Source of the DNA: Planctomycetota bacterium | GTDB taxonomy: Bacteria > Planctomycetota > UBA1135 | NCBI GenBank assembly: GCA_045047305.1 | Contig: JASFYO010000049.1 | Location: forward strand, 1-30,765 | DNA: 30,765 nucleotides | Direction: 5' to 3' | Shown: piece by piece, positions 5,698 to 26,439 of the stretch | Numbering within the stretch: the first letter of the stretch is position 1 | Layout of the letters: every line of letters begins with the position of its first letter | Program-made: the position numbers and the translations under genes | The notes under the pieces: generated by a model | What the model was told of the DNA's origin: nothing | Database searches by the model: none | The model's input: the letters and a program-made list of their open reading frames with translations, nothing else

Positions 5698-7380
5698 TTA
5701 AGGCACCACCACAATGGGCACAGCTACAGAGCTCAGGCTTGCTTGGGTGCCGGAGTAGCTTATGGCTGCAAAGTAGAGCGTAGTGCCGATTAAGTTGGTG
5801 AGTTGGCCAGCTGGTACACGGACGCGGACTTGATGATCGCCTTCGGAGTTCAAACTGCCGCGGAAGTTTGGCGGCGGGCTTTGCAGAGATCTTTGAAAGA
5901 AAGGATCGAAGGTCAGAGGCACATCGATGCCGCCAAGCGGAGTGGAAGAATTGCCGGTGGACGATGCGAGAATGCCGAAGGATTTTCCAGCTTCACTAAC
6001 GGGGAAATCCACTTGGAAGCGCAACTCACTTGGCGCCGAAGCGGAGAGACTTAGGCTGCCTCGGTTACGGAGGAAGGGGTCGAGAGTCAGGGCGACGACG
6101 CGGCCTGGGAAGCTGAAGCCGTACAGAGGTTCCCCAATCAGCAACTCCGGTATGCCATCGCCAGTGCGGTCGAAAGCCCCCATGCTGATTCCGAAGCCTG
6201 TGTATTGGCTCTCCCCCTTAAACTCCCAGAGAATGGAGCCATCACGGCCATTGAGCACGAGGACGCGGGGCTCATCGAGTTGCGCGAGGGTGGGTTGGTA
6301 AACCAGGAGATCTTTATATCCGTCTTGGTTTAGGTCATCCACCGCCATGACATCTTCGCCAAAAGAGCCATGCCCCACGGTGCCGTCGGTCCTCCACAGA
6401 GGCAGTCCTGTGGCGCTAGAAAGCATAGTTACATAACCGGCCCCTTGCTTGTTTGGAGTGTCGAAATAGCGTGCCCCCACAATAATCTCATCAATGGAAT
6501 CTCCATCCAAATCTGGGAGGGTGGTAAGTGCATCACCATAGCCTTGGAGGGGCTCCATGGTGGCTGGAGGGTAGCTGCGAAGGATCACTCCACTCGGTTG
6601 GCTAAGCGTATACACCATGCCTGCATCGAGAACACCATTCACATTTTCCCGAGTGGAGGTAAGAATATCGCGCTGACCGATACCACTCGTATCAGGGCCA
6701 AATGTAAGTGTTCGGCCAAAAAAATCAGACTCATTTCGTCCGTAACTCTGCCAAAGGAGGAAACCCGTGGCGCCTGACCAACAGTCAATTCGTCCGACAG
6801 ATCGATCTCCCGCTGGGTTTTCACTCTTGTGAGAGGAGATAAGATAATCCCCAAATCCGTCTCCATCCAAATCTTGAAGCCCAAGCAGGGCGGCCCCCAA
6901 GCCCTCACCAGCGCCTTGGACAGTCCCGACCACCCCAAAGTGCTCCCGGATCAAAGAACCGTCCAGCCCACTAAGGACTACCACTTTTCCTTTAACGCCA
7001 TCAAAGCCCAAGTTGCCAGCCAACAAGTCGGCGACTCCATCACCGTTTAGATCAGAAACGAAAGAGAGGGAACCGCTGGTCACTGGGTAAGAATCTGGTA
7101 TTAGCGGTTCGTATTCCCAAAGGATGGTGCCCGTTTTCCCAGAGTAAAGTTGCAACAAGCCTACCTGTTGGCCAAAAGCATTAAGATGTCCGTGACTGCC
7201 TACTGCAAACTCTGGAATACCGTCCCCATCAAGATCCGGGCCGACTTCGAGAGTGCCACCAATGGCATCGGTAGCCATAAGGGCCCCTTCCACTTGTCCA
7301 AGGGAATCCCAGTCTCCCCCCACGGTTTGCAAAGCCGCAGGGGAAGCAAGAACTAGACTGGCTAATATGGTGATTATCAT
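5698..7380 (-). CDS. secreted FG-GAP / integrin-alpha-like seven-bladed beta-propeller protein with C-terminal beta domain
   Basis: Signal peptide MIITILASLVLASPAA; seven DxD/NxDG-like repeats (DLDGDGIPE, DLNGDGVAD, DLDGDGFGD, DTSGIGQRD, DLDGDSIDE, DLNQDGYKD, DRTGDGIPE); AGGAG SD at 7388-7392. Confidence 0.9.
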   Translation of the reverse strand: MIITILASLVLASPAALQTVGGDWDSLGQVEGALMATDAIGGTLEVGPDLDGDGIPEFAVGSHGHLNAFGQQVGLLQLYSGKTGTILWEYEPLIPDSYPVTSGSLSFVSDLNGDGVADLLAGNLGFDGVKGKVVVLSGLDGSLIREHFGVVGTVQGAGEGLGAALLGLQDLDGDGFGDYLISSHKSENPAGDRSVGRIDCWSGATGFLLWQSYGRNESDFFGRTLTFGPDTSGIGQRDILTSTRENVNGVLDAGMVYTLSQPSGVILRSYPPATMEPLQGYGDALTTLPDLDGDSIDEIIVGARYFDTPNKQGAGYVTMLSSATGLPLWRTDGTVGHGSFGEDVMAVDDLNQDGYKDLLVYQPTLAQLDEPRVLVLNGRDGSILWEFKGESQYTGFGISMGAFDRTGDGIPELLIGEPLYGFSFPGRVVALTLDPFLRNRGSLSLSASAPSELRFQVDFPVSEAGKSFGILASSTGNSSTPLGGIDVPLTFDPFFQRSLQSPPPNFRGSLNSEGDHQVRVRVPAGQLTNLIGTTLYFAAISYSGTQASLSSVAVPIVVVP

Positions 7381-7438: not shown

Positions 7439-9550
7439 TTACTGTACCTCAAAAGCACCTGTATCCCGTCCTGGAGCAACCGTCCTAAGGAAACCAGGAC
7501 CACGATTGTCGGTAATTTCAGTGGCAAATGGCACATTCAATCCCTTTCCAATTACCGGACTAGAAGTGGTTGGAAAGACATCTCCAAGGAGGTTCCCCAT
7601 AAAGGTGAAGGATCCAAGCAGTGGAGGATCATAATAATTGAACTGGGCAGTGGTGTATTGGGGGAGAATACTCCCACTCTGAAGTCGACCAAGATTGGAG
7701 TAATCGGTTCCCGCAAAAATGTCGTTCCATTGCCCCATAGAACCGATTGGGGGCGGTTCTGGGTAATAGGCCAGATCAGAAACACTGCCACCAGAAGAGC
7801 TAAACCCGTTCTCATTCAAGACACTATTGTCAATGCGGGAGCCAGACATGGCTGGCCACAGGGAAGTTTGGGCTAGAGAAGTACTCCCATACAAAGACAA
7901 TGCATAAGGCGTAGGGTTATCCGAAACCGTAACGTGGGACAAGTTCATGAGCAAGACATTGGACTCGTCCGTGGAGATGACAGTAATCGGGTTGGTCTCT
8001 TTGGCTAATGCTCCCGTCGACATGTACATAGGAGGTCCGATTCCTAGATTCTGTGAAACCGTAGAATTGGTCACGATAAGCCGTTGTTGGCGAGACGGCC
8101 CGGATGTAGAAAACACCATGTTAATTCCACTAGTGTGGTTGGCAGAAGCTGCGGAACGGTGCACGTGAAGTTCAATATTTGATTCCAGCATGTGGGTATA
8201 AATCCCGTGCCCTCTCACCGAATTGTCGAGATCGAGACCGTTGCGCAAGAAGGTACATAAGTCAAACTCGGCAAGCGGGAAGCCATCGGCTTCATCGTCA
8301 AAGGAGCCAGAATCCAACCAAACTCCGTGCCGGTAATTGTCATCAAAATGGCTCTCCCTCCCTTCATCGACCGTCCATGCACCTTCCTCTAAGACTTGCA
8401 AGTGAAGCCCTGATTGCCCCAATTGGCTCACAGGCAGGTAACTATTGCCGCCTGCCGCGCTTCCATTAAAGCGAAATGAAGAATTAGTGCAATCGAGAAA
8501 ACCGGCGGAGTCATTCTGCATCACCACGCCATAAAATCCTTCGCCTAAGGCATCGCGAACCGAAACACCTTCCAGATTGAAGCGGCCCTGCACACCCTGC
8601 CTAATACTGACCTCGATTCCGGCGCCTCCAATGGCTTGTTGGGTAAAGGGCGGAATGATAGGGATCGTGGAGCTGCGGCCTGAAATCTCAATATTGCGCA
8701 GGTTCACTATGAGGGTATCGTCTGCCTGTGCATCGTAGCCCTGAAACGCCATCATAGAAGTAATGGTGTCGGAGTCGGAAGGGCGCAAATCTGAGGATTC
8801 CACAGAGAATCGATAGGTATGCGCACCAGAGCCTGCCGCATCCGTAAACTCAAGGTCAATCTGAGGACGATCCGAAGGAAACGAAACTGAGGGAGAGCGC
8901 ATAAGACACCTACGCAATAGAGCTCTCGACCCTATCGACTCTGACACACGAACGCGGACAGCCTGCCTGCACTCATAAAAGGCAACTCCATCAACCAAGA
9001 AATCGGTCGTGCCTGGCTGTAATGGAACGTTGTCCTCAATTTGAATCCCAACTTCAAAGTCCCGAAGCTCAAAACCCTGGTTAGTGTCTGGAAGGGTCAA
9101 TGGAACCACCGGTAAATAGCCGGTAATCCCAGTCATATTCGAGCCTGTATTCACTTCAAGCATCTCGAAGCAGGTTCCCCCCGGAACGGGGCCGGCAGTA
9201 AATACAGCCGAAGGAGGCCTTACGGGTAAGGTGCCATTGACATCCCAATAGCGAACTCGGGTACCGTCTGGAAGTTCCATGGGGAAGGTCTCGGTCTGAT
9301 CGACAGGGAGCAGAGAATTAAAGGTGTAGGGATTAGCAGCCCCTCTACCAGCAACCCAAAAGACTAGAGGTGCGCCAGAGCCAGCGAGGCCGCTTTCCGT
9401 GGTTATGGCATAAGATAGAGACATATATGGGGTGGTGATGGAACCATCGCCACCCGGTGCTGCTGTGGAATCTACATAAAAAGTTTGCGAGGAAAGGTGA
9501 TTGCTAAGCGAAAAAATCGCTAAGAAGGAAAGTAGGAAAGTTTTACACAT
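7439..9550 (-). CDS. secreted right-handed beta-helix (pectin-lyase-like fold) protein, DUF1565-like N-terminus, choice-of-anchor-Q-like C-terminus
   Basis: Signal peptide; FYVDSTAAPGGDGSITTPY and ETFP; parallel beta-helix-type repeats (NSSFRFNG, CTFLRNG, NSTVSQN, HVTVSDN); ends SSPVIGKG..TDNRG...DTGAFEVQ. Confidence 0.8.
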   Translation of the reverse strand: MCKTFLLSFLAIFSLSNHLSSQTFYVDSTAAPGGDGSITTPYMSLSYAITTESGLAGSGAPLVFWVAGRGAANPYTFNSLLPVDQTETFPMELPDGTRVRYWDVNGTLPVRPPSAVFTAGPVPGGTCFEMLEVNTGSNMTGITGYLPVVPLTLPDTNQGFELRDFEVGIQIEDNVPLQPGTTDFLVDGVAFYECRQAVRVRVSESIGSRALLRRCLMRSPSVSFPSDRPQIDLEFTDAAGSGAHTYRFSVESSDLRPSDSDTITSMMAFQGYDAQADDTLIVNLRNIEISGRSSTIPIIPPFTQQAIGGAGIEVSIRQGVQGRFNLEGVSVRDALGEGFYGVVMQNDSAGFLDCTNSSFRFNGSAAGGNSYLPVSQLGQSGLHLQVLEEGAWTVDEGRESHFDDNYRHGVWLDSGSFDDEADGFPLAEFDLCTFLRNGLDLDNSVRGHGIYTHMLESNIELHVHRSAASANHTSGINMVFSTSGPSRQQRLIVTNSTVSQNLGIGPPMYMSTGALAKETNPITVISTDESNVLLMNLSHVTVSDNPTPYALSLYGSTSLAQTSLWPAMSGSRIDNSVLNENGFSSSGGSVSDLAYYPEPPPIGSMGQWNDIFAGTDYSNLGRLQSGSILPQYTTAQFNYYDPPLLGSFTFMGNLLGDVFPTTSSPVIGKGLNVPFATEITDNRGPGFLRTVAPGRDTGAFEVQ

Positions 9551-10815: not shown

Positions 10816-13728
10816 ATGAAAACAAGGACCCTAATTTCTTTCGCGGTTGCTGCATGCCTTGGCCTGTCCGCCACGGCCTCCTCTCAAAACGAACAACCGA
10901 TTCAGGATCCCGTCGGCACGGCGCTTGATTCCTGGCAGATGGATCACGGCGCCAATTGGCGCTTACGACTCCACGATGACCTCACCACAGGTCGCCACTT
11001 GTGGGGCTACCACACAGAAGCTCGCTTCACTCCATCGCTCGACTCTGATTATGAGGAGCTTGCGCGCATGGCTTACGATGAGGCCTATGGCATGTTCGCG
11101 GTTGCCGATGGCACCCTAACTCTGGAGCAGGTCAAGCATTTGGCTTTGCAGCAGATTGGCACCACCGACAAGGTTGCCGTGGAGTTTCGCCAGTACGTGA
11201 AAGGCATTGAAGTACTCGAGGCATCGGCCCACGCCATCTTCGATACCAAAGGTTCCTTGCTCTCCTTAGACAGCCGCGCCATCCCTGGTGTGGAATCGAT
11301 TTCCGTGCGCCCTGTCGCCGACCGTTTCGCCGCAGTCAGCGCTGCCATCGCCTACTACGCGGAGCTTGAAGGTGGCCGTGAAGCCAGCTTCGTTGGCATT
11401 CCAGAGTTGGTGATTATCAAAAGTCACCCAGGAAAATTTATGGAGCCGCGCCTTGCTTGGTCGATTGAGTTACGCAACCAAGAGACTCCTGAAAACCCTG
11501 CAGGTCGAACCATTTTCATTGCTGCAGACAATGCTTCCATGGAAATGCTCGAGGAGCGCAATCTGATCCACAACCAACAAGCCACTGGAACCGTAAACAG
11601 TTACGCCACTCCAGGCACTGCAGCTCACAGTGGATCCAACCCTCCGACTTTGCAGACCATGCCGTTCATGACCTTGACCAGCCCGGTGGGCAACACGCAA
11701 ACCGATGGGAACGGCAATTTTGTCCTGAATACGCCAAACAACAACCCGGTCAACATCACTGCGACCTACAACGGCCCATTCTGTCGTGTGTTCAACCAAG
11801 CTGGTGGCGACCACAGTACCACGGCTAGCTTTACTCCAGGCATCGCAGGTAGCATGGACATGAACACTGCGCAAACGGAGTTCATCACTTCGGAAGCCAG
11901 CTGTTACGACTCGGTTATGGACCTTCGTGCTTGGCTCAAAAACATCGATCCAAGCGACAACACTGCTGACTTCCAGGTGCGCACCAACGCAAACTTGAAT
12001 TCGACTTGCAATGCCTACTTTGATGGTTTCTCCATCAACATGTTCCGCGCAGGCAGCGGCTGCAACAATACTGGCTTCAGCACTGTGGTTACCCACGAAG
12101 AAGGCCACTGGCTTAATTCCCTTTACGGCAGCGGCAACGGTGCCGATGGTTTCGGTGAAGGAAATTCCGATGTCTTTGCCATGTACATTTACGACACTCC
12201 AGTGGTCGGTCAAGACTTCTTCACCAATGGCGGCGTCATTCGTCGCGGCACCAACAACCGCCAATTCTGCGGTGATACCAATGGAGGCTGTTACGGCGAA
12301 GTCCACGCAGACGGAGAAGTACTCATGGGTGCCTTGTGGAAGGTTCGCGCGAACCTCAACAACACACTAGGCAACGCTTCCGGTGACCTCACCGCCGACA
12401 CGCTTTTCGTGGCATGGATGAACGCCTACAACGATGGCCAGATTCGCACCTTCATTGAAGAACACTGGTTGGTTCTAGACGATAACGATGGCAACATTTT
12501 TAACGGCACCCCGAACTTCGCAGACATTGATGGTGGTTTCCGCCAGCAAGGCTTTGATGGTGTCGATCTTCAGTTCATTCAAATCACTCACGCCCCACTC
12601 GGCAACAGCCTCTCCGAAGCTGGCCCATACGTAGTGGATGCAGACATCACCAGCTTGATTGGAAACATCATCACTTCTGCAGATGTGGTTTACTCCGTCG
12701 ACGGTGGCCCAAGCATTACCCTTGCGATGACCAACAGCGGCAGCTCCTACAGTGCCGGCATTCCTGGACAGGTTTCTCCTGCTCGCGTGAGCTACCACAT
12801 TGAAACCGGTGACAGCGGCGGCAACACGGAGAACTTCCCACGCAACGGCAGCGAACTCATGTTCGTAGTTGGTGTTGAAAACCAGATTTACTTCAACGAC
12901 TTCGAAGGTGCTACCGACGAAGGCTGGACCCATGCTCAAATCGCAACTCAGGATGACTGGATGCGTGGCATTCCTGCAGGCAAAGTAGATGATCCGAGTT
13001 CTGCCTACGCTGGCAACAACTGTTGGGGCAACGACCTTGGCCCAAGTGGCTTCAATGGCTCCTATGCTGCCAACGTCAACAACTACCTAGAGTCTCCGGC
13101 AATCGACTGTAGTGGAGAAACTGGCGTCACTCTGCGTTTTGCTCGCTGGCTCAATGTTGAGGAAAGTCGCTATGACTTTGCTCGGATTACTGTGAACGGA
13201 GTTCAGGTTTACGTAAACCCATTCGCTGGACATGCACTGGAAAGTTCTTGGAGCATTCAGGAGATTGATATTTCCGCGATTGCCGACAACAACCCTTCGG
13301 TGAAAGTTCGATTCTCCATGCAATCCGATGCAGGATTAGAGTTTGGCGGTTGGAACATCGATAACTTTGAACTCATGACGCTGGAACCTGTTCCCGGTGG
13401 CAGCAATACCATTAACCTCAGTGGCGACACCACGGCCCTTCCTGGCGCCACGGTGAATTACACCATGAGTGGCATGCAAGCTGGAGCAACCTGGGCCTTC
13501 TTGGCCAGTGGTTCGAATGCTGGCACGGTCATCTTGGGTCACACCTTTGAGGTCGGTCCAGGCTACAACATCATGGACACCGGAGTCGCTGATGGCTCGG
13601 GTAACGCATCCACTAGCTTCACCATTCCATCGAACTTGCCAGCTGGTGCTGTTGGTTACATGGAAGTTGGTTCGCAAAGTGGACTTGGAGTGGAAGACTC
13701 CAACTTGCTGACCTTTACCGTTCAGTAA
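10816..13728 (+). CDS. secreted gluzincin metallopeptidase (M36 fungalysin / M4-like) with propeptide, accessory beta domains and conserved C-terminal domain
   Basis: Signal peptide; FTP/PepSY-like pro-region (FRQYVKGIEV, PRLAWSIE); CNAYFDG; zinc motif HEEGH; third ligand in GEGNSD; EVHADGE..GALW. Confidence 0.88.
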   Translation: MKTRTLISFAVAACLGLSATASSQNEQPIQDPVGTALDSWQMDHGANWRLRLHDDLTTGRHLWGYHTEARFTPSLDSDYEELARMAYDEAYGMFAVADGTLTLEQVKHLALQQIGTTDKVAVEFRQYVKGIEVLEASAHAIFDTKGSLLSLDSRAIPGVESISVRPVADRFAAVSAAIAYYAELEGGREASFVGIPELVIIKSHPGKFMEPRLAWSIELRNQETPENPAGRTIFIAADNASMEMLEERNLIHNQQATGTVNSYATPGTAAHSGSNPPTLQTMPFMTLTSPVGNTQTDGNGNFVLNTPNNNPVNITATYNGPFCRVFNQAGGDHSTTASFTPGIAGSMDMNTAQTEFITSEASCYDSVMDLRAWLKNIDPSDNTADFQVRTNANLNSTCNAYFDGFSINMFRAGSGCNNTGFSTVVTHEEGHWLNSLYGSGNGADGFGEGNSDVFAMYIYDTPVVGQDFFTNGGVIRRGTNNRQFCGDTNGGCYGEVHADGEVLMGALWKVRANLNNTLGNASGDLTADTLFVAWMNAYNDGQIRTFIEEHWLVLDDNDGNIFNGTPNFADIDGGFRQQGFDGVDLQFIQITHAPLGNSLSEAGPYVVDADITSLIGNIITSADVVYSVDGGPSITLAMTNSGSSYSAGIPGQVSPARVSYHIETGDSGGNTENFPRNGSELMFVVGVENQIYFNDFEGATDEGWTHAQIATQDDWMRGIPAGKVDDPSSAYAGNNCWGNDLGPSGFNGSYAANVNNYLESPAIDCSGETGVTLRFARWLNVEESRYDFARITVNGVQVYVNPFAGHALESSWSIQEIDISAIADNNPSVKVRFSMQSDAGLEFGGWNIDNFELMTLEPVPGGSNTINLSGDTTALPGATVNYTMSGMQAGATWAFLASGSNAGTVILGHTFEVGPGYNIMDTGVADGSGNASTSFTIPSNLPAGAVGYMEVGSQSGLGVEDSNLLTFTVQ
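12862..13389 (+). repeat. copy 1 of a 528-nt (176 aa) module shared by the two peptidases
   Basis: Gap-free alignment to 15473-16000, FVVGV.N.IYFNDFEG ... SDAGLEFGGWN.D.FEL.TLEP; about 131/176 residues identical by hand count. Confidence 0.95.
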
Positions 13729-13739
13729 ACGCAAACTGC

Positions 13740-13774
13740 AAGGGAACGGCCTGATTGGGCCGTTCCCTTTCCTT
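13740..13774 (+). terminator. hairpin (terminator or mRNA stabiliser) between the M36-like and M28 genes
   Basis: AAGGGAACGGCC-TGATTG-GGCCGTTCCCTT, perfect 12-bp stem 11 nt after the stop, followed by TCCTT. Confidence 0.75.
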
Positions 13775-13822
13775 GCCCCCACAGATCTTTAGCCACCAGG
13801 CACCTTTCCTTACTGACCTCCC

Positions 13823-16327
13823 ATGCTCCTTAGCCTGCTTCTAGCAACCCAACTGCAGCAACCCTTGCCGCCCGAAGCGCCAGCTGTGATCGCCCCTTCG
13901 GTGGCACCTGGAATGATGGCCTCGGAACCGCGCTATGCGGTTTATGCATTTGGCAAGGATCTGGATTTACGCGATGCCTTAATTCGCCACGGCATGATGT
14001 TCGATGACCTCGGAGGCTACATCCTAGGCACCAAAGATGCTGCACTCGCGGCACGCTTGGATGTCGACATGATTGGCTTGCCGGCACTTGCCGATGGCGA
14101 ATCCGTGTTCACCATCATCGAGCATCATGGGGAAGATGCGCACGGCGTCGGCGAATCCGGACGCCTATTGTGGACCTCGGCGGATCAGCGCATCATGCTG
14201 CGCGCCTTGAATAAATCGCAAGCTGCTGCTGCGGCAAATAGCAACTTTCGCTGTCACGGCGCAGTACGCAAGATGAGTTTGCAGGGCATACAACCAACAT
14301 CTTTGCAGAGAGGACGCTTGGGTGCCATCACTCCAAACCCACAGATTGCTGGATGGGTTGCGCAGGTTTCACAAAGCAATTTGCACAACGATGTCGCGAC
14401 CATGGAAGCATTTGGTACGCGTCGTCACTTTGAAAACGGAGAAGTGAACGCGGAAAACTGGTTGGTTGCCCAATTCCAAGGCATAGGCCTTAGCACCACG
14501 ACCTTCGACTATGACTCTGGCGCCGACGTTGTGATTGCGGAACTGCCTGGGCAAACCGATCCCAGCAAAATCGTTGTCATTGGTGCGCACTACGATTCGG
14601 TGAACTGGCAAGGCAGTGCCAGCTCGCCTGCTCCAGGCGCGGACGATGATGCCTCTGGAACCGCGGGCATTTTAGAAATCGCTCGGGTGCTGGCTGGGCA
14701 ATCTTTCGATTACACCATTCGCTTTTGCGCCTTCTCCGGTGAAGAGTTTGGCTTACTTGGCTCCGAAGCTTATGCCGCATCGCTCGACGCCGCCGGCGCC
14801 AATGTCATTGGCATGGTGCAGCTAGATATGACTGCCTACCGCGCACCAGGCGATAGCTTGAGCGTGGATTTTGTCACCAACGACACCGACACCGGGCTGA
14901 ACAATTTTGCGATGGACGTTTACACCGCCTACGTTCCTGGATTGGCCGTCAACATTGCCTTCTTGTCGGGCGGTACCAGCGATCACAAATCGTTTTTCAA
15001 CCACGGATTCCCCGCGACCTTCCCGTTTGAGGATTTAGGCGCCTACAGCCCCTTCATTCACACTCCGAACGACACCAGCGGAACCTCGGCCAATGATTTC
15101 AACTTAGCGCGCATGATCACAGAAGGTGCGCTTGCGACGGTTGCAGAACTGGCACGTCCGCTGGCGATGACCATGAATCATGTTGCGTTAGGTGATACAC
15201 AAAATGAAGCCGGCCCTTACACCGCGGTGGTCGACGTTGTTTCGCAAACGGCCGCCACCATCAGTGGAGTGGACTTGTTCTGGCGCGCTGAAGGTGCAGC
15301 CAACTTCACCACCGTAGCGATGACTCCAAGCGGCACTACCAACCAGTGGTCCGGCGACATTCCAGGCCAGCAGAGTCCAATCCGATTGGAGTACTACATG
15401 GTGGCATTCGATTCCAACGCAGGCACGCGCTTCCTTCCCGATGGTTTACAGGCTGGCGAAAATCTTTACCGCTTCGTAGTTGGTGTTTACAACCGAATTT
15501 ACTTCAACGATTTTGAGGGCACCACCGACGCGGGATGGTTTCACCAACAAATTGCAACGCAAGACGATTGGCAGCGCGGCATGCCAGCCGGCAAGGTGGA
15601 AGATCCAGGCAGTGCATTCTCCGGCAATCAATGCTGGGGCAATGACCTCGGCCCAAGTGGCTTCAATGGCTCTTATGCCAGCAATGTGGACAACTACCTG
15701 GAGTCCCCAAGTATCGATTGCAGCGGTCAAACCGGAGTCAAACTGCGCTTTGCACGCTGGCTCACGGTGGAAGAAGGCCAGTATGACCAGGCGAAGATCC
15801 GGGTCAATGGGCAGGTGGTGTGGGAAAACCCATCTAGCGGGAACATCATCGACAACACTTGGAGCATCCAAGATATCGATATTTCCGCTATCGCAGACAA
15901 CAACGCAGCGGTCAACGTCCGCTTCAGTCTCGAATCCGATGCAGGACTTGAGTTTGGTGGATGGAACCTCGACGACTTCGAGCTCTACACTTTGGAGCCC
16001 GCAGGCGGAGGCCATATGACTTTATCCGGCACCACCATGGTGAATGCAGGCGGTTCTGCGACATTCGATCTAGATGACGCAGCGCCAAGCCAAACTTGGT
16101 ACCTGATTTACAGCTTCTCCAACGCAGGCAGCACCATCTTTGGCACTCCGTTTGAAGTTGGCCTTCCTTGGGCGTTGCTCTACACCGGCACCACCGATAC
16201 CCAGGGCGAGGCATCCTATTCCTTGAGTGTCCCTGCAAACGGCAGCGGCCTCACGGTTTACTTTGAAGCCGCAACCAATGCGGGTTCGATTGAAAACTCC
16301 AATTTGCACACCCTGGTCGTCAACTAA
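13823..16327 (+). CDS. secreted M28-family aminopeptidase with accessory beta domains and conserved C-terminal domain
   Basis: M28 motifs VIGAHYDS, PGADDDASG, FSGEEFGLLGS, QLDM, SDH, IHTPND; C-terminal half homologous to the upstream peptidase. Confidence 0.92.
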   Translation: MLLSLLLATQLQQPLPPEAPAVIAPSVAPGMMASEPRYAVYAFGKDLDLRDALIRHGMMFDDLGGYILGTKDAALAARLDVDMIGLPALADGESVFTIIEHHGEDAHGVGESGRLLWTSADQRIMLRALNKSQAAAAANSNFRCHGAVRKMSLQGIQPTSLQRGRLGAITPNPQIAGWVAQVSQSNLHNDVATMEAFGTRRHFENGEVNAENWLVAQFQGIGLSTTTFDYDSGADVVIAELPGQTDPSKIVVIGAHYDSVNWQGSASSPAPGADDDASGTAGILEIARVLAGQSFDYTIRFCAFSGEEFGLLGSEAYAASLDAAGANVIGMVQLDMTAYRAPGDSLSVDFVTNDTDTGLNNFAMDVYTAYVPGLAVNIAFLSGGTSDHKSFFNHGFPATFPFEDLGAYSPFIHTPNDTSGTSANDFNLARMITEGALATVAELARPLAMTMNHVALGDTQNEAGPYTAVVDVVSQTAATISGVDLFWRAEGAANFTTVAMTPSGTTNQWSGDIPGQQSPIRLEYYMVAFDSNAGTRFLPDGLQAGENLYRFVVGVYNRIYFNDFEGTTDAGWFHQQIATQDDWQRGMPAGKVEDPGSAFSGNQCWGNDLGPSGFNGSYASNVDNYLESPSIDCSGQTGVKLRFARWLTVEEGQYDQAKIRVNGQVVWENPSSGNIIDNTWSIQDIDISAIADNNAAVNVRFSLESDAGLEFGGWNLDDFELYTLEPAGGGHMTLSGTTMVNAGGSATFDLDDAAPSQTWYLIYSFSNAGSTIFGTPFEVGLPWALLYTGTTDTQGEASYSLSVPANGSGLTVYFEAATNAGSIENSNLHTLVVN
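15473..16000 (+). repeat. copy 2 of the 528-nt shared module
   Basis: Aligns to 12862-13389; includes the identical DNA run GGCCCAAGTGGCTTCAATGGCTC. Confidence 0.95.
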
Positions 16328-16334
16328 TCTCAGC

Positions 16335-17675
16335 ATGAAGCCACACTACATCACTTTGTCCGCCATCCTCCTTGGGCTGTGCACCTCCCCGGCTGCAGCG
16401 CAAAACGGCACCACCGAACTCTCCCGCACCGACCAATACGGTTATTACAACGAGGTCTGGGGCTACACCGCTGCGAATGGAGATGAATACGCCATCATCG
16501 GCACCGATACCGGCACAGCTTTTTACGATGTCAGCACCCCGACCGCTCCGATCTTAGTCAAATTCATCAACGGCCCATTCTCGATTTGGCGCGACATGGC
16601 GACTTATGGAGACTACTGCTACGTTGTCACTGAAGGCGGGTCCGGCATGCAGATCATTGATCTCAGCACACCAAGCAATCCCACTCTGCTTTCCACTTTC
16701 GGAACTAGTCTGTGGAATGATGCGCACAACATCTCCATTGATGAAGGCGCCGGGATGGCCTACATCATTGGCACCAATGTAGGCATGCCTGTCTTAGACC
16801 TAAGCAACCCAACGGCCCCGGTGCAAGTTGCGAACTACGGCGCACACTATGTTCATGATGCCTCCGTGCAAAATGGATATGCCCACTTTGCGGAAATCTA
16901 CGGGGGGCAGTACCGCATAGTTTCCGTGTCTAACTTGCCTTCTTTCCCGTCTTTGGATGCCGTCACCACGCCTGGCAACTTCACCCACAACGTAGGCGTG
17001 AATGCTACCGACACCTTGGCAGTGACCAGCGATGAAAGCCCAGGCGGCGGCCTAGCGATTTACGATATCAGCAATAAAAGCAACATCCAGTTGCTCTCGA
17101 CTTGGAACAACAGCAATGCCACGGTGCATAATGCTTTCATCAAAGGCAACCGGGTTTACGCTTCTTGGTATAGCTTCGGCTTTGCTTGCATCGATATCAG
17201 CGACCCAAGCTTTCCACAACAGGTTGCGACTTTCGATTCCAGCAATCACTCCGGCATTGGCTATGAAGGTACTTGGGGAGTTTATCCCTTTGCGCAATCA
17301 GGCTTGGTATACCTTTCCGACCAAGACAATGGTTTGTACGTCATTCAAATCAATGATGCCGACATCAACCTGGCTGGCACCGCATCGGTCCCTGCCGGTA
17401 GCAGCACCAACTTAAACCTTAGTGGTGCAGCAGCGAATTCCACCTGGTACTTGCTCTTCAGCTTTTCCAATGCAGGCATGGCTCAGTACGGCACCACCTT
17501 TGAAGTCGGCCCTGGCTGGTCTCTACTTGGGAGCGGCACCACCGACGCCCTCGGCAATGCGAGCTACACCCTGAATGTGCCCGCCGGCGTTAGTGGCAGC
17601 ACCGCCTACTTCGAAGCAGCGACCGCAAACGGCCCGGTTCTGACTTCGAATTTGTTCCGCCTGCAGGTGCAGTAG
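16335..17675 (+). CDS. secreted LVIVD-repeat (choice-of-anchor-B-like) beta-propeller protein with conserved C-terminal domain
   Basis: Start reassigned to ATG 16335; signal peptide ending AAA-Q; NEVWGY, EYAIIG, SIWRD, GMQIIDLS, AHNI, YVHD, THN, VHN, GTWGVYP. Confidence 0.88.
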   Translation: MKPHYITLSAILLGLCTSPAAAQNGTTELSRTDQYGYYNEVWGYTAANGDEYAIIGTDTGTAFYDVSTPTAPILVKFINGPFSIWRDMATYGDYCYVVTEGGSGMQIIDLSTPSNPTLLSTFGTSLWNDAHNISIDEGAGMAYIIGTNVGMPVLDLSNPTAPVQVANYGAHYVHDASVQNGYAHFAEIYGGQYRIVSVSNLPSFPSLDAVTTPGNFTHNVGVNATDTLAVTSDESPGGGLAIYDISNKSNIQLLSTWNNSNATVHNAFIKGNRVYASWYSFGFACIDISDPSFPQQVATFDSSNHSGIGYEGTWGVYPFAQSGLVYLSDQDNGLYVIQINDADINLAGTASVPAGSSTNLNLSGAAANSTWYLLFSFSNAGMAQYGTTFEVGPGWSLLGSGTTDALGNASYTLNVPAGVSGSTAYFEAATANGPVLTSNLFRLQVQ

Positions 17676-23009: not shown

Positions 23010-24896
23010 TCAGCTTCTACGCCGAGTAAGCCGCAGTAGAAAACCGAGTAGGAGCACGCCAAAGGCGAAGCGTTGTCCTGGGTTCCATTGGGTGATGCCA
23101 TCGGCGACCACCACTGGAAGTACCAATGCAGCCCGCGCACCTTTACGAGCCCATTCATGCTGCAAAAGGAATGCTGCACCTTTAGGACCGTTTTCATAAT
23201 ACCAATCCACGCACTGCTTGCCCGCGGGAGTCGCCTTCAGGTATTGATCGCGGAAGCGACGCAGTGCAAAAACCTCGTGGGATTCATAATTGCCGAGAGC
23301 GGCCGTCGCAACGAAACAGTCATTATTGGGCAGAGGGACATCGAGCCCTGATGCGCGGACGGTCAAGTTGAAGGAGCCTGTCTGACCGCCGGGGTTGGTC
23401 ACGATGAAAGATTTAATACCAGCTGTGAGTGCCGGCAGCTGCAGAACCACGCTGCCGCCCAAGGAGGTGACACCGATTTCCGTTTGCAAAATAGTGGTTC
23501 CATCCAGAGTGACACTAAGTTGCCCGGTAGCGCCTCCACCATCGTAATCCACAAAGGCGCTACCCGCCGCTGCGGTAAGAGTGACTTCGCCGGCCGTACC
23601 CGACGCAAAGCTCACACCAAAGCTGCCTTCAAGAGTCTCGTTGAGGATCCCGTTGGCATCGGCGTTACCTCCGAATTGGCTCACCGCTCCATCGGGGAAA
23701 AAGTTGTTGCGCGCCGAAATAGAATTGACCACCGCAGCACCAAATCGGAAATCACTACCGTTACCGGAGAAAGTATTTAAGCATGCTGCAAATCCAAAAT
23801 GTCCTGGGCCAAAGTTTGGATCATTGTTTTCACCACCGGCAGTCGGCACCGTCGAGGTCAACTCCACGCCTGCACGCACTGCGTTTTCGATGCGGTTGCC
23901 GTAAAAGTCGGCGAGGATGTCGGCCTGATCACCACCACCGTTGATGGTTTCACACAGGATATTGATATGGTTCCCAGTGACGTTAGAAAAACAAATATAC
24001 GGCGCCACCATCGCACCTCCACTATTCAACCCATGTTCCGCGCGCAGATGCATACCAATTTCCGCGACACCAGGGCCAGTTAGGAAGTTCCCATTAGCCG
24101 CGCAAAGAATCGAGGAAACCGAGCCAAGTCCAATGCCTGAGCCAAAGGCGTGCATCAAGATCCCGGCCTCCAAATATCCTGCAAAGATATTTTCGTGCAC
24201 TCCAAAGTTTTGCTCCACCACCGCACCACTCGCAGCCAGTATGGAGACCGCGCGATCAACGCCACCAGAGCTTGTGTTTCCAGTAATCCCGCCTAAACTC
24301 AAAATGGTGGCATTGGATACCTGAATAGCAATCGCATCGCGTGCGCCGTTGCCGGCAAAGGTGCATTGCTCAATCAACAGCTGCTCAGCGAGGCCGCCTG
24401 TATCGAGCACGGCAAGGACGCCGTAGCCATCATTCGCGCCAACACTGGAGTCCGAAAAGTTGCTGAAGTTACATTGCTGAATGGTGAGTCCATTCACGCT
24501 ACGGCCACTAGGGATTTCTACGCCCACGGTGCAACCGGTCAGAGTCACTCCACCAAAGACAGTGCCTGCCAAAATATCTTCTCCTACTTGGAAGAGTGTG
24601 CCTGCGCCTCCAGCATCGAAAATCGGGTCTTCGCCAACGAAGGCTTCAATATGGACACGATTAGCCAACAAGATTGGAAAGGTTTCCGTTGCCGCGGCAT
24701 AGGTTCCACTGCGCAAGGAAATCGCATCGCCGACTGTGGTTTGGGTCAGCGCGAAAGTCAGACTCACAAAGGGTGTGCCTTGGGAGCCGTCGGCGCCATC
24801 GTTGCCCGTGTTCGGGTCCACAAAGTATGTGGTCTGCGCGGATAAAGACGATGAAGTGAAAAGAGCGAACAGTAGCCAGAGTGAGCGCAAGTTCAT
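23010..24896 (-). CDS. exported DUF1565-like beta-helix protein with CFI-box-CTERM-type C-terminus
   Basis: Start reassigned to ATG 24896; signal peptide; YFVDPNTGND..GS..PF, ETFPI; C-terminal CFVATA..LRRFRDQYL...G...VDWYY..GP, then a hydrophobic segment and RRRS. Confidence 0.85.
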   Translation of the reverse strand: MNLRSLWLLFALFTSSSLSAQTTYFVDPNTGNDGADGSQGTPFVSLTFALTQTTVGDAISLRSGTYAAATETFPILLANRVHIEAFVGEDPIFDAGGAGTLFQVGEDILAGTVFGGVTLTGCTVGVEIPSGRSVNGLTIQQCNFSNFSDSSVGANDGYGVLAVLDTGGLAEQLLIEQCTFAGNGARDAIAIQVSNATILSLGGITGNTSSGGVDRAVSILAASGAVVEQNFGVHENIFAGYLEAGILMHAFGSGIGLGSVSSILCAANGNFLTGPGVAEIGMHLRAEHGLNSGGAMVAPYICFSNVTGNHINILCETINGGGDQADILADFYGNRIENAVRAGVELTSTVPTAGGENNDPNFGPGHFGFAACLNTFSGNGSDFRFGAAVVNSISARNNFFPDGAVSQFGGNADANGILNETLEGSFGVSFASGTAGEVTLTAAAGSAFVDYDGGGATGQLSVTLDGTTILQTEIGVTSLGGSVVLQLPALTAGIKSFIVTNPGGQTGSFNLTVRASGLDVPLPNNDCFVATAALGNYESHEVFALRRFRDQYLKATPAGKQCVDWYYENGPKGAAFLLQHEWARKGARAALVLPVVVADGITQWNPGQRFAFGVLLLGFLLRLTRRRS

Positions 24897-24900
24897 GAGA

Positions 24901-26439
24901 CTATGAAACGAGGAGAGTGTGACCATCCATGACCTCGGGTTGTGCGATCTCCATAGCCTGCATGAGAGTTGGGGCGACGTCGGCAAGAACACCCATTGCG
25001 CGCAGCTTGGCACCACGAAACTCCTCTCCAATGAGAAGGAAAGGAACCGGGTTGACGGTGTGCGCGGTATGCACATCTCCAGTCACCGGATCGATCATCT
25101 GTTCTGCATTTCCATGGTCCGCAGTAATCGCAACAATCCCACCAACTGCGAGTGCAGCATCCACGATTTGTTTCAAGCAACCATCCACTGCGCGGACCGC
25201 GGCTTCTGCTGCGCTCACGATGCCGGTGTGACCGACCATATCGGAGTTGGCAAAGTTAATCACGTACAAATCGTTTTCGCCCTGCTCGAGTCGGTTGAGC
25301 ACAGCAGCTGTGATCTCAAAGGCAGACATTTCTGGCTTCAAATCGTAGGTGGCCACCTTAGGCGATGCCACAAGGTGACGTTCCTCTCCCTTATAGACCG
25401 CTTCGCGCCCACCATTAAAGAAAAATGTGACATGCGCATATTTTTCGGTCTCGGCGCAGCGGAATTGACGCATGCCAGCCTCGGCCACCAACTCCCCAAA
25501 CATCGAGGCCAGCTCCAATGGCGGGTAGGCGACAGCACAAGAAAACTCCTTTGAGTATTGGGTCATGCTGGTGTAGTGCACCTTTGGAACACTGCCCCGC
25601 TCCAAGTCACGGAAATGCTCATCGCCGAGGAAGGCCGCAGTGATCTGACGCACCCGGTCAGCACGAAAGTTCAAGCTCAACACCGAGTCACCGTCTTCCA
25701 TCTTGGCCGCAGCACCAAGTGCAATGGGCTTAACAAACTCATCGGTTTCGCCTCGCGCATAGGCCTCCTCCACCGCAGTGGTGGCACTGGAAGCGTGGAA
25801 GTCAGCTTTGCCATGCACCATCAAATCCCACAACAACTGCGTGCGCTCCCAGTTGTTGTCACGGTCCATGCCCGAGTAGCGTCCGCACAAGGTGGCAAAG
25901 CGTGCCCCTGTTTTGTGCAAAAGAGGCTCTAATCGCCTAACGTAATTGAGTGCGGAGGATGGCGATGTGTCGCGGCCATCCAGTAAGCCGTGGAGCAAAA
26001 TCCGTTCTCCAGGAAAATCCATGGACGCGGCCAACGCCAACACCGCTTCAAGATGCTCATCGGAAGCATGCACGCCACCATTGCCGATTAAACCGAAAAG
26101 GTGCAACCGCCCACCGCTTTCGCGCGCAGCTTCTACCGCCCCACGCAAAGCCCCAATGCGTTGAAATTCTCCATTGCGGATACTTTCGTCAATGCGAGAA
26201 ATCGTCTGATAAACCCTTCGTCCAGCACCAATATTGGTGTGTCCGACTTCCGAATTCCCCATCAATCCTGGGGGTAAACCGACCTCCTTCCCTGACGCCG
26301 AGAGCAGCGCATGGGGCCATTGTTCCCACCAGGAGAGGAAATTTTCCGCTGGAGCGTGGGTAATAGCGTTGTTCTCGTCAGGAGGGGCATATCCCCAACC
26401 ATCGAGCACGATGAGAAGTTTTGGGCGCTTCGAAGTCAT
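24901..26439 (-). CDS. gpmI: 2,3-bisphosphoglycerate-independent phosphoglycerate mutase
   Basis: LIVLDGWG, MGNSEVGH, GGVH, DGRDT, NFRADR, AETEKYAHVTFFFNGG, NFANSDMVGHTG, TADHGNAE. Confidence 0.98.
   Translation of the reverse strand: MTSKRPKLLIVLDGWGYAPPDENNAITHAPAENFLSWWEQWPHALLSASGKEVGLPPGLMGNSEVGHTNIGAGRRVYQTISRIDESIRNGEFQRIGALRGAVEAARESGGRLHLFGLIGNGGVHASDEHLEAVLALAASMDFPGERILLHGLLDGRDTSPSSALNYVRRLEPLLHKTGARFATLCGRYSGMDRDNNWERTQLLWDLMVHGKADFHASSATTAVEEAYARGETDEFVKPIALGAAAKMEDGDSVLSLNFRADRVRQITAAFLGDEHFRDLERGSVPKVHYTSMTQYSKEFSCAVAYPPLELASMFGELVAEAGMRQFRCAETEKYAHVTFFFNGGREAVYKGEERHLVASPKVATYDLKPEMSAFEITAAVLNRLEQGENDLYVINFANSDMVGHTGIVSAAEAAVRAVDGCLKQIVDAALAVGGIVAITADHGNAEQMIDPVTGDVHTAHTVNPVPFLLIGEEFRGAKLRAMGVLADVAPTLMQAMEIAQPEVMDGHTLLVS

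Follow-up and report, generated by a model that had tools for sequence, protein, structure and literature searches.

Window genes that share a terminal domain

The window considered here (the whole stretch analysed, 30,765 nucleotides of contig JASFYO010000049.1 from the Planctomycetota bacterium assembly GCA_045047305.1) contains four genes whose products end in the same kind of domain, 105 residues long, which is the subject of this report. Three of them, all on the forward strand, lie at 10816-13728, 13823-16327 and 16335-17675 and, as a sequence-only reading of the window had pointed out, end in alignable segments of 103-105 amino acids (AA). That reading counted these three as the carriers; a fourth copy closes an FG-GAP gene at 5698-7380 on the reverse strand.

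The first gene (10816-13728, +, 970 AA) encodes a metallopeptidase-like protein in which a signal-peptide-like start is followed by a gluzincin-type region, a module with immunoglobulin (Ig)-like and MAM-like parts, and the terminal domain (copy 1, 13411-13728, +, stop codon included). It had been labelled M36-like, and the motif behind that label, HEEGH...EGNSD, is indeed there, with HEEGH at residues 427-431, but Pfam, NCBIfam and PDB sequence searches gave it no support, and the protein is M36/M4-like by motif only. The second gene (13823-16327, +, 834 AA) encodes an M28 peptidase (PF04389, E 8e-35) with the same Ig-like and MAM-like cassette and the terminal domain (copy 2, 16010-16327, +), the copy whose sequence was used for folding. 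The third (16335-17675, +, 446 AA) encodes an LVIVD propeller of the choice-of-anchor B family (TIGR04312, 171 bits against a cut-off of 100); it most likely starts at the ATG at 16335, a few bases past the M28 stop, and its terminal domain (copy 3, 17358-17675, +) was placed by alignment and profile search. The FG-GAP propeller (5698-7380, -, 560 AA) also has a signal-peptide-like start, and its terminal domain (copy 4, 5698-6066, -) is a longer, divergent form, matched at an independent E-value (iE) of 9e-16.

Over the last 106-108 residues, the M28 and LVIVD proteins are identical at 56 of 106 positions (53%) with no gap between the pair, much as the hand count of roughly half had put it; the M36-like tail matches that of the LVIVD protein at 42/106 positions (40%) and that of the M28 protein at 37/106 (35%). 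The description of the three proteins as unrelated does not hold for the M36-like and M28 pair, which have their final 389 AA in common at 53% identity, tail included, and differ only in their catalytic parts. The Ig-like and MAM-like cassette (12577-13395, + in the first gene) lies within this block, and its Pfam hints, CBM_56 and InhA-like_MAM, are weak and below cut-off. Because the three copies resemble one another more than the median pair in the genome does (21% identity), and because the M36-like and M28 proteins share those 389 residues, they form a local subfamily. The consensus first quoted for the domain is present in all three, but its TW, SNAG, FEVG and Y.E elements are only traits of that subfamily.

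Adjoining the FG-GAP carrier is a gene for a 703-AA protein (7439-9550, -) with a signal-peptide-like start and without the tail domain; its end matches choice-of-anchor Q only weakly, under the cut-off. Promoter and terminator scans gave results at or below chance.

Abundance, cargo and spread of the domain

A hidden Markov model was built from the three forward-strand copies and iterated over the 21,537 six-frame open reading frames (ORFs) of the genome (G000) with no positional rule; the final iteration was run without flanks, since flank extension drifted into FG-GAP repeats. The assembly, which contains no 16S gene, may belong to the UBA1135/'Saltatorellus' clade. The census gave 68 matches at iE<1e-3 and 74 at iE<0.02, with the best reversed-ORF decoy at iE 0.037. 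The 74 comprise 64 full-length copies at most 12 AA from the stop, two N-terminal copies, four partial ones and four that run off a contig end. Terminal placement was seen in 64/65 full-length copies (closed ORFs >200 AA) against 2.2 expected by random placement and, given this excess and the decoy score, the series of C-terminal matches is not due to chance. The assertion that the domain is always C-terminal is thus right for nearly all full-length copies, while exceptions occur in 2/74 matches in the genome and 5/150 top database matches.

Carriers make up 73 of 2,384 crudely called genes, about 3%, and their bodies, with the domain masked, fall into 36 groups, the biggest consisting of 20 FG-GAP proteins. 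Pfam and NCBIfam scans of the window's proteins and of 60 of the carriers outside it detected peptidases of families S8, M10, M14 and M28 along with PQQ sugar dehydrogenases, di-haem peroxidases, cupredoxins, a lectin, LamG, FG-GAP and PD40 propellers, and choice-of-anchor B, J and Q proteins. Signal peptides are predicted for most carriers: the rule used, a crude one rather than SignalP and one that missed the M28 protein itself, was positive in 67/74, against 645 of 1,425 other long ORFs. By a loose pattern, a glutamine just after the likely cleavage site is present in 56/65 carriers and 162/485 other candidates, a feature reminiscent of the Bacteroidota Q-rule.

Some copies are damaged. A PD40-like paralogue at C77:12883-14628 (-) has a tail of the window's subfamily with a frameshift in mid-domain, and three further partial copies lie on contigs C29, C32 and C68; these are pseudogenes or assembly errors. 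The genome also encodes a 46-member family (e.g. C50:4113-7712) whose proteins are 800-1,200 AA long and anchored in the membrane at their N-terminus, and in which the tail domain is absent; a similar protein, at C54:4773-7847, has carboxypeptidase-regulatory-like repeats.

The sequence-only reading had named as support tens to hundreds of matches, almost always at the C-terminus of signal-peptide proteins; tens in each genome, so placed, is the pattern throughout the lineage. Beside the 74 matches here, the profile matched 30 of 31 relatives, in each of which it found 12-149 copies among the at most 150 matches scored, and the domain is present in 90 of the 91 genomes of the order. Such a spread, genome-wide and order-wide, does not agree with a local duplication, which had been raised as a refuting possibility. 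No cultured strain name turned up among the carriers. Within the phylum, 63 of 301 Planctomycetota genomes carry the domain. It is either general or absent in each of the 30 families that were itemised, and it reaches beyond this class; homologue names and Atlas taxa likewise point to Planctomycetota. In sequence databases, 9,280 clusters at 50% identity match it, and among the best 150 of these, a single C-terminal copy is the rule (130), while 15 contain two or three copies and five have an N-terminal copy only. One protein named from Thermodesulfobacteriota has a tandem pair, and several of the proteins with N-terminal copies give the impression of being lipoproteins of another phylum. Among 40 named genomes from other phyla (Bacteroidota, Pseudomonadota and Cyanobacteria) the profile matched none, in a search that included no positive control.

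The choice-of-anchor B proteins allow the tail to be followed on a single passenger. The LVIVD body was compared with 120 homologues (392-770 AA), of which 99 match the domain, all 99 of them no more than 20 residues from the end; fragments and visibly diverged copies are among the 21 others, together with two that have tails of the FlgD_ig or type IX secretion system (T9SS) type, one of which, P0133, is over the TIGR04183 cut-off.

Predicted fold and comparison with known C-terminal tags

The domain is variable, with only 1 of 105 columns reaching 90% conservation. Half or more of 59 aligned sequences keep G14, S35, G38, G40, G45, L50, P53, D63, G66 and A68, as well as P75, G80, Q86-A87 and S97-N98; the column profile shows G80-x-T-x-Y-x-Q-A followed by S97-N98, and lysine makes up 0.9% of residues. 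From the 59-sequence alignment (A1), AlphaFold2 predicts an all-beta model, an Ig-like beta-sandwich, with pLDDT 95, in which S35, G38, G40, G45, L50 and P53 belong to a conserved hairpin insert between main strands 3 and 4. Foldseek and VIA-align returned generic Ig-like matches with no stand-out (best Z 10.3, root-mean-square deviation 2.3, 89 residues aligned); 158 chains score Z 8 or more, a level shared with antibodies and alpha-2-macroglobulin domains, and none of the matches listed is a T9SS C-terminal domain (CTD). By sequence, the best PDB match is the C-1027 apoprotein at a weak E of 1e-3. Neocarzinostatin-type apoproteins and macroglobulin-type Ig domains thus resemble the tail in their beta-sandwich (Z 9-10), but they score no higher than generic Ig folds, with no sign of family membership or shared function. 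Prediction of a homodimer gave a score of 0.01, which bears on binding neither way.

As the sequence-only reading had supposed, the domain has no named family: no Pfam or NCBIfam model matched over it in the three forward-strand window tails or the 60 further carriers, and the nearest Atlas clusters (0.94-0.95) are unnamed, the best named cluster standing at 0.79-0.80. That reading had also considered that a characterised Ig-like family might account for the domain; the predicted fold is indeed Ig-like, yet no characterised Ig family matches.

A fold this generic would suit an Ig-like stalk, or an adhesion or glycan/lipid-binding module, that was spread by shuffling and had no dedicated partner. 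The best Z of about 10, the slight likeness to the neocarzinostatin-type apoproteins, the tandem pair in the Thermodesulfobacteriota protein and the spread of the window's local subfamily together with a larger cassette are all in keeping with this, as is the IPT/TIG domain that closes two proteins of the choice-of-anchor B family from carrier genomes. A passive domain, however, would not be expected to come last in 64/65 cases, nor to exclude dockerin genome by genome as described below, and we regard this explanation as quite improbable.

Known anchoring tags offer another comparison. LPXTG, PEP-CTERM, MYXO-CTERM and CFI-box-CTERM are likewise C-terminal tags on varied cargo, but the transmembrane (TM)-anchored CTERM signals consist of a motif, a TM helix and a basic tail. 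The tail domain was said to have neither a TM helix nor a basic tail, and this was borne out: in 74/74 matches the 19-residue hydropathy maximum within the last 70 AA is at most 1.63, and the last 10 residues hold at most two K/R. CFI-box-CTERM does occur in this genome, as an infrequent alternative means of anchoring, with two copies against about 70 of the common tail domain. One ends a DUF1565 protein of the window (23010-24926, -; NF041770, 68.7 bits, cut-off 40) and the other lies at C4:74735-76636.

A further parallel is with T9SS, in which the CTD (TIGR04183/PF18962), like FlgD_ig (PF13860), is a C-terminal Ig-like beta-sandwich on signal-peptide proteins; tails of this type stand in for the tail domain on the two choice-of-anchor B homologues mentioned above. 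The tail domain has 105 AA, however, against about 72 for the T9SS CTD, and occurs also in tandem and at the N-terminus. The earlier judgement that it is not a T9SS CTD is sustained by the profile, motif and machinery comparisons. Neither TIGR04183 nor PF18962 matched the three window tails or the 60 carriers, and hhalign of the 59 domains against 25 T9SS CTDs gave a probability of 0.1%; membership in the type A CTDs is rejected. The PxGxYVV and KxxxK motifs, placed in the last 22 residues of T9SS CTDs in the available part of PMC5445135, were not found in the column profile. Nor was the machinery detected, in genomes 84-96% complete: SprA was found in 0/5 carriers (a Tenacibaculum control was positive), PorV was over cut-off in 0/31, with 7 weak partial matches, and TIGR04183 was over cut-off in 0/31, against 81 matches in the control.

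The tail could still be an export signal of another kind, by which folded periplasmic cargo is recognised by a non-T9SS outer-membrane translocon, such as a secretin or type II secretion variant or some other channel; this we think possible, though somewhat on the unlikely side. The almost strictly terminal position, with extra modules inserted upstream of the domain, speaks for it, and so do the two choice-of-anchor B homologues with FlgD_ig/T9SS-type tails and the six secretins of the genome; the cargo list, too, resembles that of T9SS. In T9SS, too, the signal resides on an Ig-like fold, according to the available part of PMC5445135. Against it stand the tandem and N-terminal copies, the lack of a conserved terminal motif (a single column at 90%), the occurrence of secretins also in the domain-negative genomes G021 and G031, and the failure to find a co-occurring translocon among about 30 envelope candidates scanned. 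A receptor or processing enzyme was not identified either, and the domain also occurs in at least one Thermodesulfobacteriota-named protein; for these reasons the word "system", used earlier for the tail and its presumed apparatus, goes further than the results.

Three candidates for a partner were considered individually. Secretins are present in 5/5 genomes, G021 and G031 included, and were rejected as a discriminating partner; in the 2.8 Mb of G000 there are six secretin genes (on C2, twice on C5, and on C21, C35 and C90), and four other Planctomycetota have 5-10. A C25/PorU-like protease was rejected as a universal partner, being present in only 44/91 genomes of the order and also in domain-negative G031. 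Tandem lipoprotein-like proteins of 1,050-1,200 AA with weak Big_5 matches are encoded at C5:52832-62744 and C46:5482-9051 (L142 and L143), near a prepilin peptidase gene and an OmpA-family gene. These Big_5-type lipoproteins, found in 18/18 order genomes of the phylum sample, 20/45 carriers of other classes and 0/35 non-carriers, are a possible envelope scaffold; they are also kept in domain-less G021, and are treated as a lead only.

Exchange with dockerin and a possible docking role

A pointer to function comes from what replaces the domain where it is missing. In a comparison of the choice-of-anchor B proteins of the phylum sample, in which 55/301 genomes were matched and the 30 best loci examined, 16 loci came from domain-negative genomes: 14 have a dockerin match at the tail (NF041540 or PF00404, nine over cut-off), one an EF-hand-like repeat and one no tail, and the domain itself is in 0/16. 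At the 14 loci from domain-positive genomes, eight have this domain, two end in IPT/TIG, two have their tails beyond the locus end and the remaining two have a similar two-cysteine tail, judged by eye; dockerin was found in 0/12 of the proteins scanned. The two tails also rarely share a genome in numbers. Five or more dockerin matches occur in 33/301 genomes, none of them among the 63 carriers, of which 19 have 1-3 matches, three being the maximum (Fisher p 4e-4, a figure that is overstated because the genomes are kin). In G000 itself no dockerin was found, nor was there a dockerin match on any of the carriers scanned.

The exchange recurs inside the order. G021, its only member without the domain (completeness 91%; not a single match, the lowest E being 0.49), has 39 dockerin matches, or 44 at a looser threshold, against at most two in each of the other 90 genomes, and it retains the marker lipoproteins of the order. 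One of its FG-GAP proteins, L199, aligns with a carrier of G000 over 392 AA at 35% identity, but has a dockerin at its end. Many of the G021 dockerin proteins (e.g. L199, L204, L221-L240) share an uncharacterised beta-rich domain directly before the dockerin.

Dockerin (PF00404, or the GC-type NF041540) and the tail domain are alike in being small, folded terminal modules on many unrelated exported proteins, peptidases included, in having the same position on choice-of-anchor B passengers, and in their genome-wide use, that of dockerin being in other Planctomycetota. They differ in their make-up: dockerin is a calcium-binding pair of EF-hands, whereas the tail is all-beta and Ig-like with no sequence match to it. 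By analogy, the tail likely has the role that dockerin tails have in other Planctomycetota. By membership it is neither T9SS CTD nor dockerin nor TM-anchored tag, yet it most likely works like a docking tag of the dockerin type.

The reading that we favour, while holding it to be evenly poised between right and wrong, is that the tail is a retained module that docks non-covalently onto one common target in the cell envelope. Docking is preferred because tandem and N-terminal copies exist and because the tail is swapped with dockerin, a known binding module; it is preferred over T9SS-like sorting because no T9SS parts were detected, no C25 protease is universal and no TM helix lies in the last 70 residues. 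Of the lineage-specific roles first offered, namely export, attachment or docking, attachment or docking of a non-covalent kind is what the results favour. Enzymes and adhesins would leave the cytoplasm by Sec, with their predicted signal peptides, and would cross the outer membrane by some general path, for which the six secretin systems are possible candidates. The Ig-like tail would stay on the protein after export and would bind the common envelope target, probably at the outer surface rather than in the periplasm. A binding face might first be sought in the hairpin insert (S35-G45, L50, P53) together with Q86 and S97-N98.

Several observations weigh against docking. No binding partner was found among the envelope candidates scanned, and the strict terminal position (64/65 copies; 99/99 choice-of-anchor B homologues) fits an export signal equally well. 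With a median identity of 21%, any target shared by the copies would have to accept widely differing sequences. The carriers are probably related, so that the exclusion of dockerin at phylum level amounts to few independent events, and the contrast within the order rests on the single genome G021, where just 4 of 21 dockerin-motif proteins have a BLAST relative in G000, the best match being a carrier in two cases. Cohesin PF00963 had 0 matches in G000, in G022 and in dockerin-rich G021, in a search that could miss divergent cohesins, and had weak matches in G051 and G082; since the dockerins of G021 have no cohesin match, those tails may not be simple docking modules. Because of this last point, the strict terminal position and the replacement by T9SS-type tails, the export reading stays in play.

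A broader proposal would embrace both kinds of tail: an undescribed envelope-addressing pathway of Planctomycetota, in which each lineage puts one interchangeable folded tail on dozens to hundreds of exported proteins, to be read by a non-T9SS receptor or translocon, the Ig-like domain serving in some classes and cohesin-independent "dockerins" in others. We consider it unlikely, but if it were true, many planctomycete dockerins would be sorting signals and not cellulosome-type parts. In freshwater Planctomycetes, peptidase complexes of cohesin and dockerin have been proposed under the name "planctosome" (available part of PMC6461901). The swap described here bears on the role of non-cellulosomal dockerins in general.

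No description of the domain was found in the literature searched, with subscription journals and supplements outside its scope. In the text available for 10.1101/817700 the terms "C-terminal", "secretion" and "signal peptide" occur 0 times, and a term search of that available for 10.1101/2023.06.07.544157 gave no match. The family is nonetheless real and large, with more than 9,000 sequence clusters and no name. Genomes of poorly studied Planctomycetota classes are rich in unassigned signal-peptide proteins, as the available part of PMC11495043 indicates, and in several such classes the domain labels proteins that are likely to be at the surface or secreted. The dockerin swap inside one order, G021 against 90 relatives, provides a direct comparison for finding the receptor or translocon.

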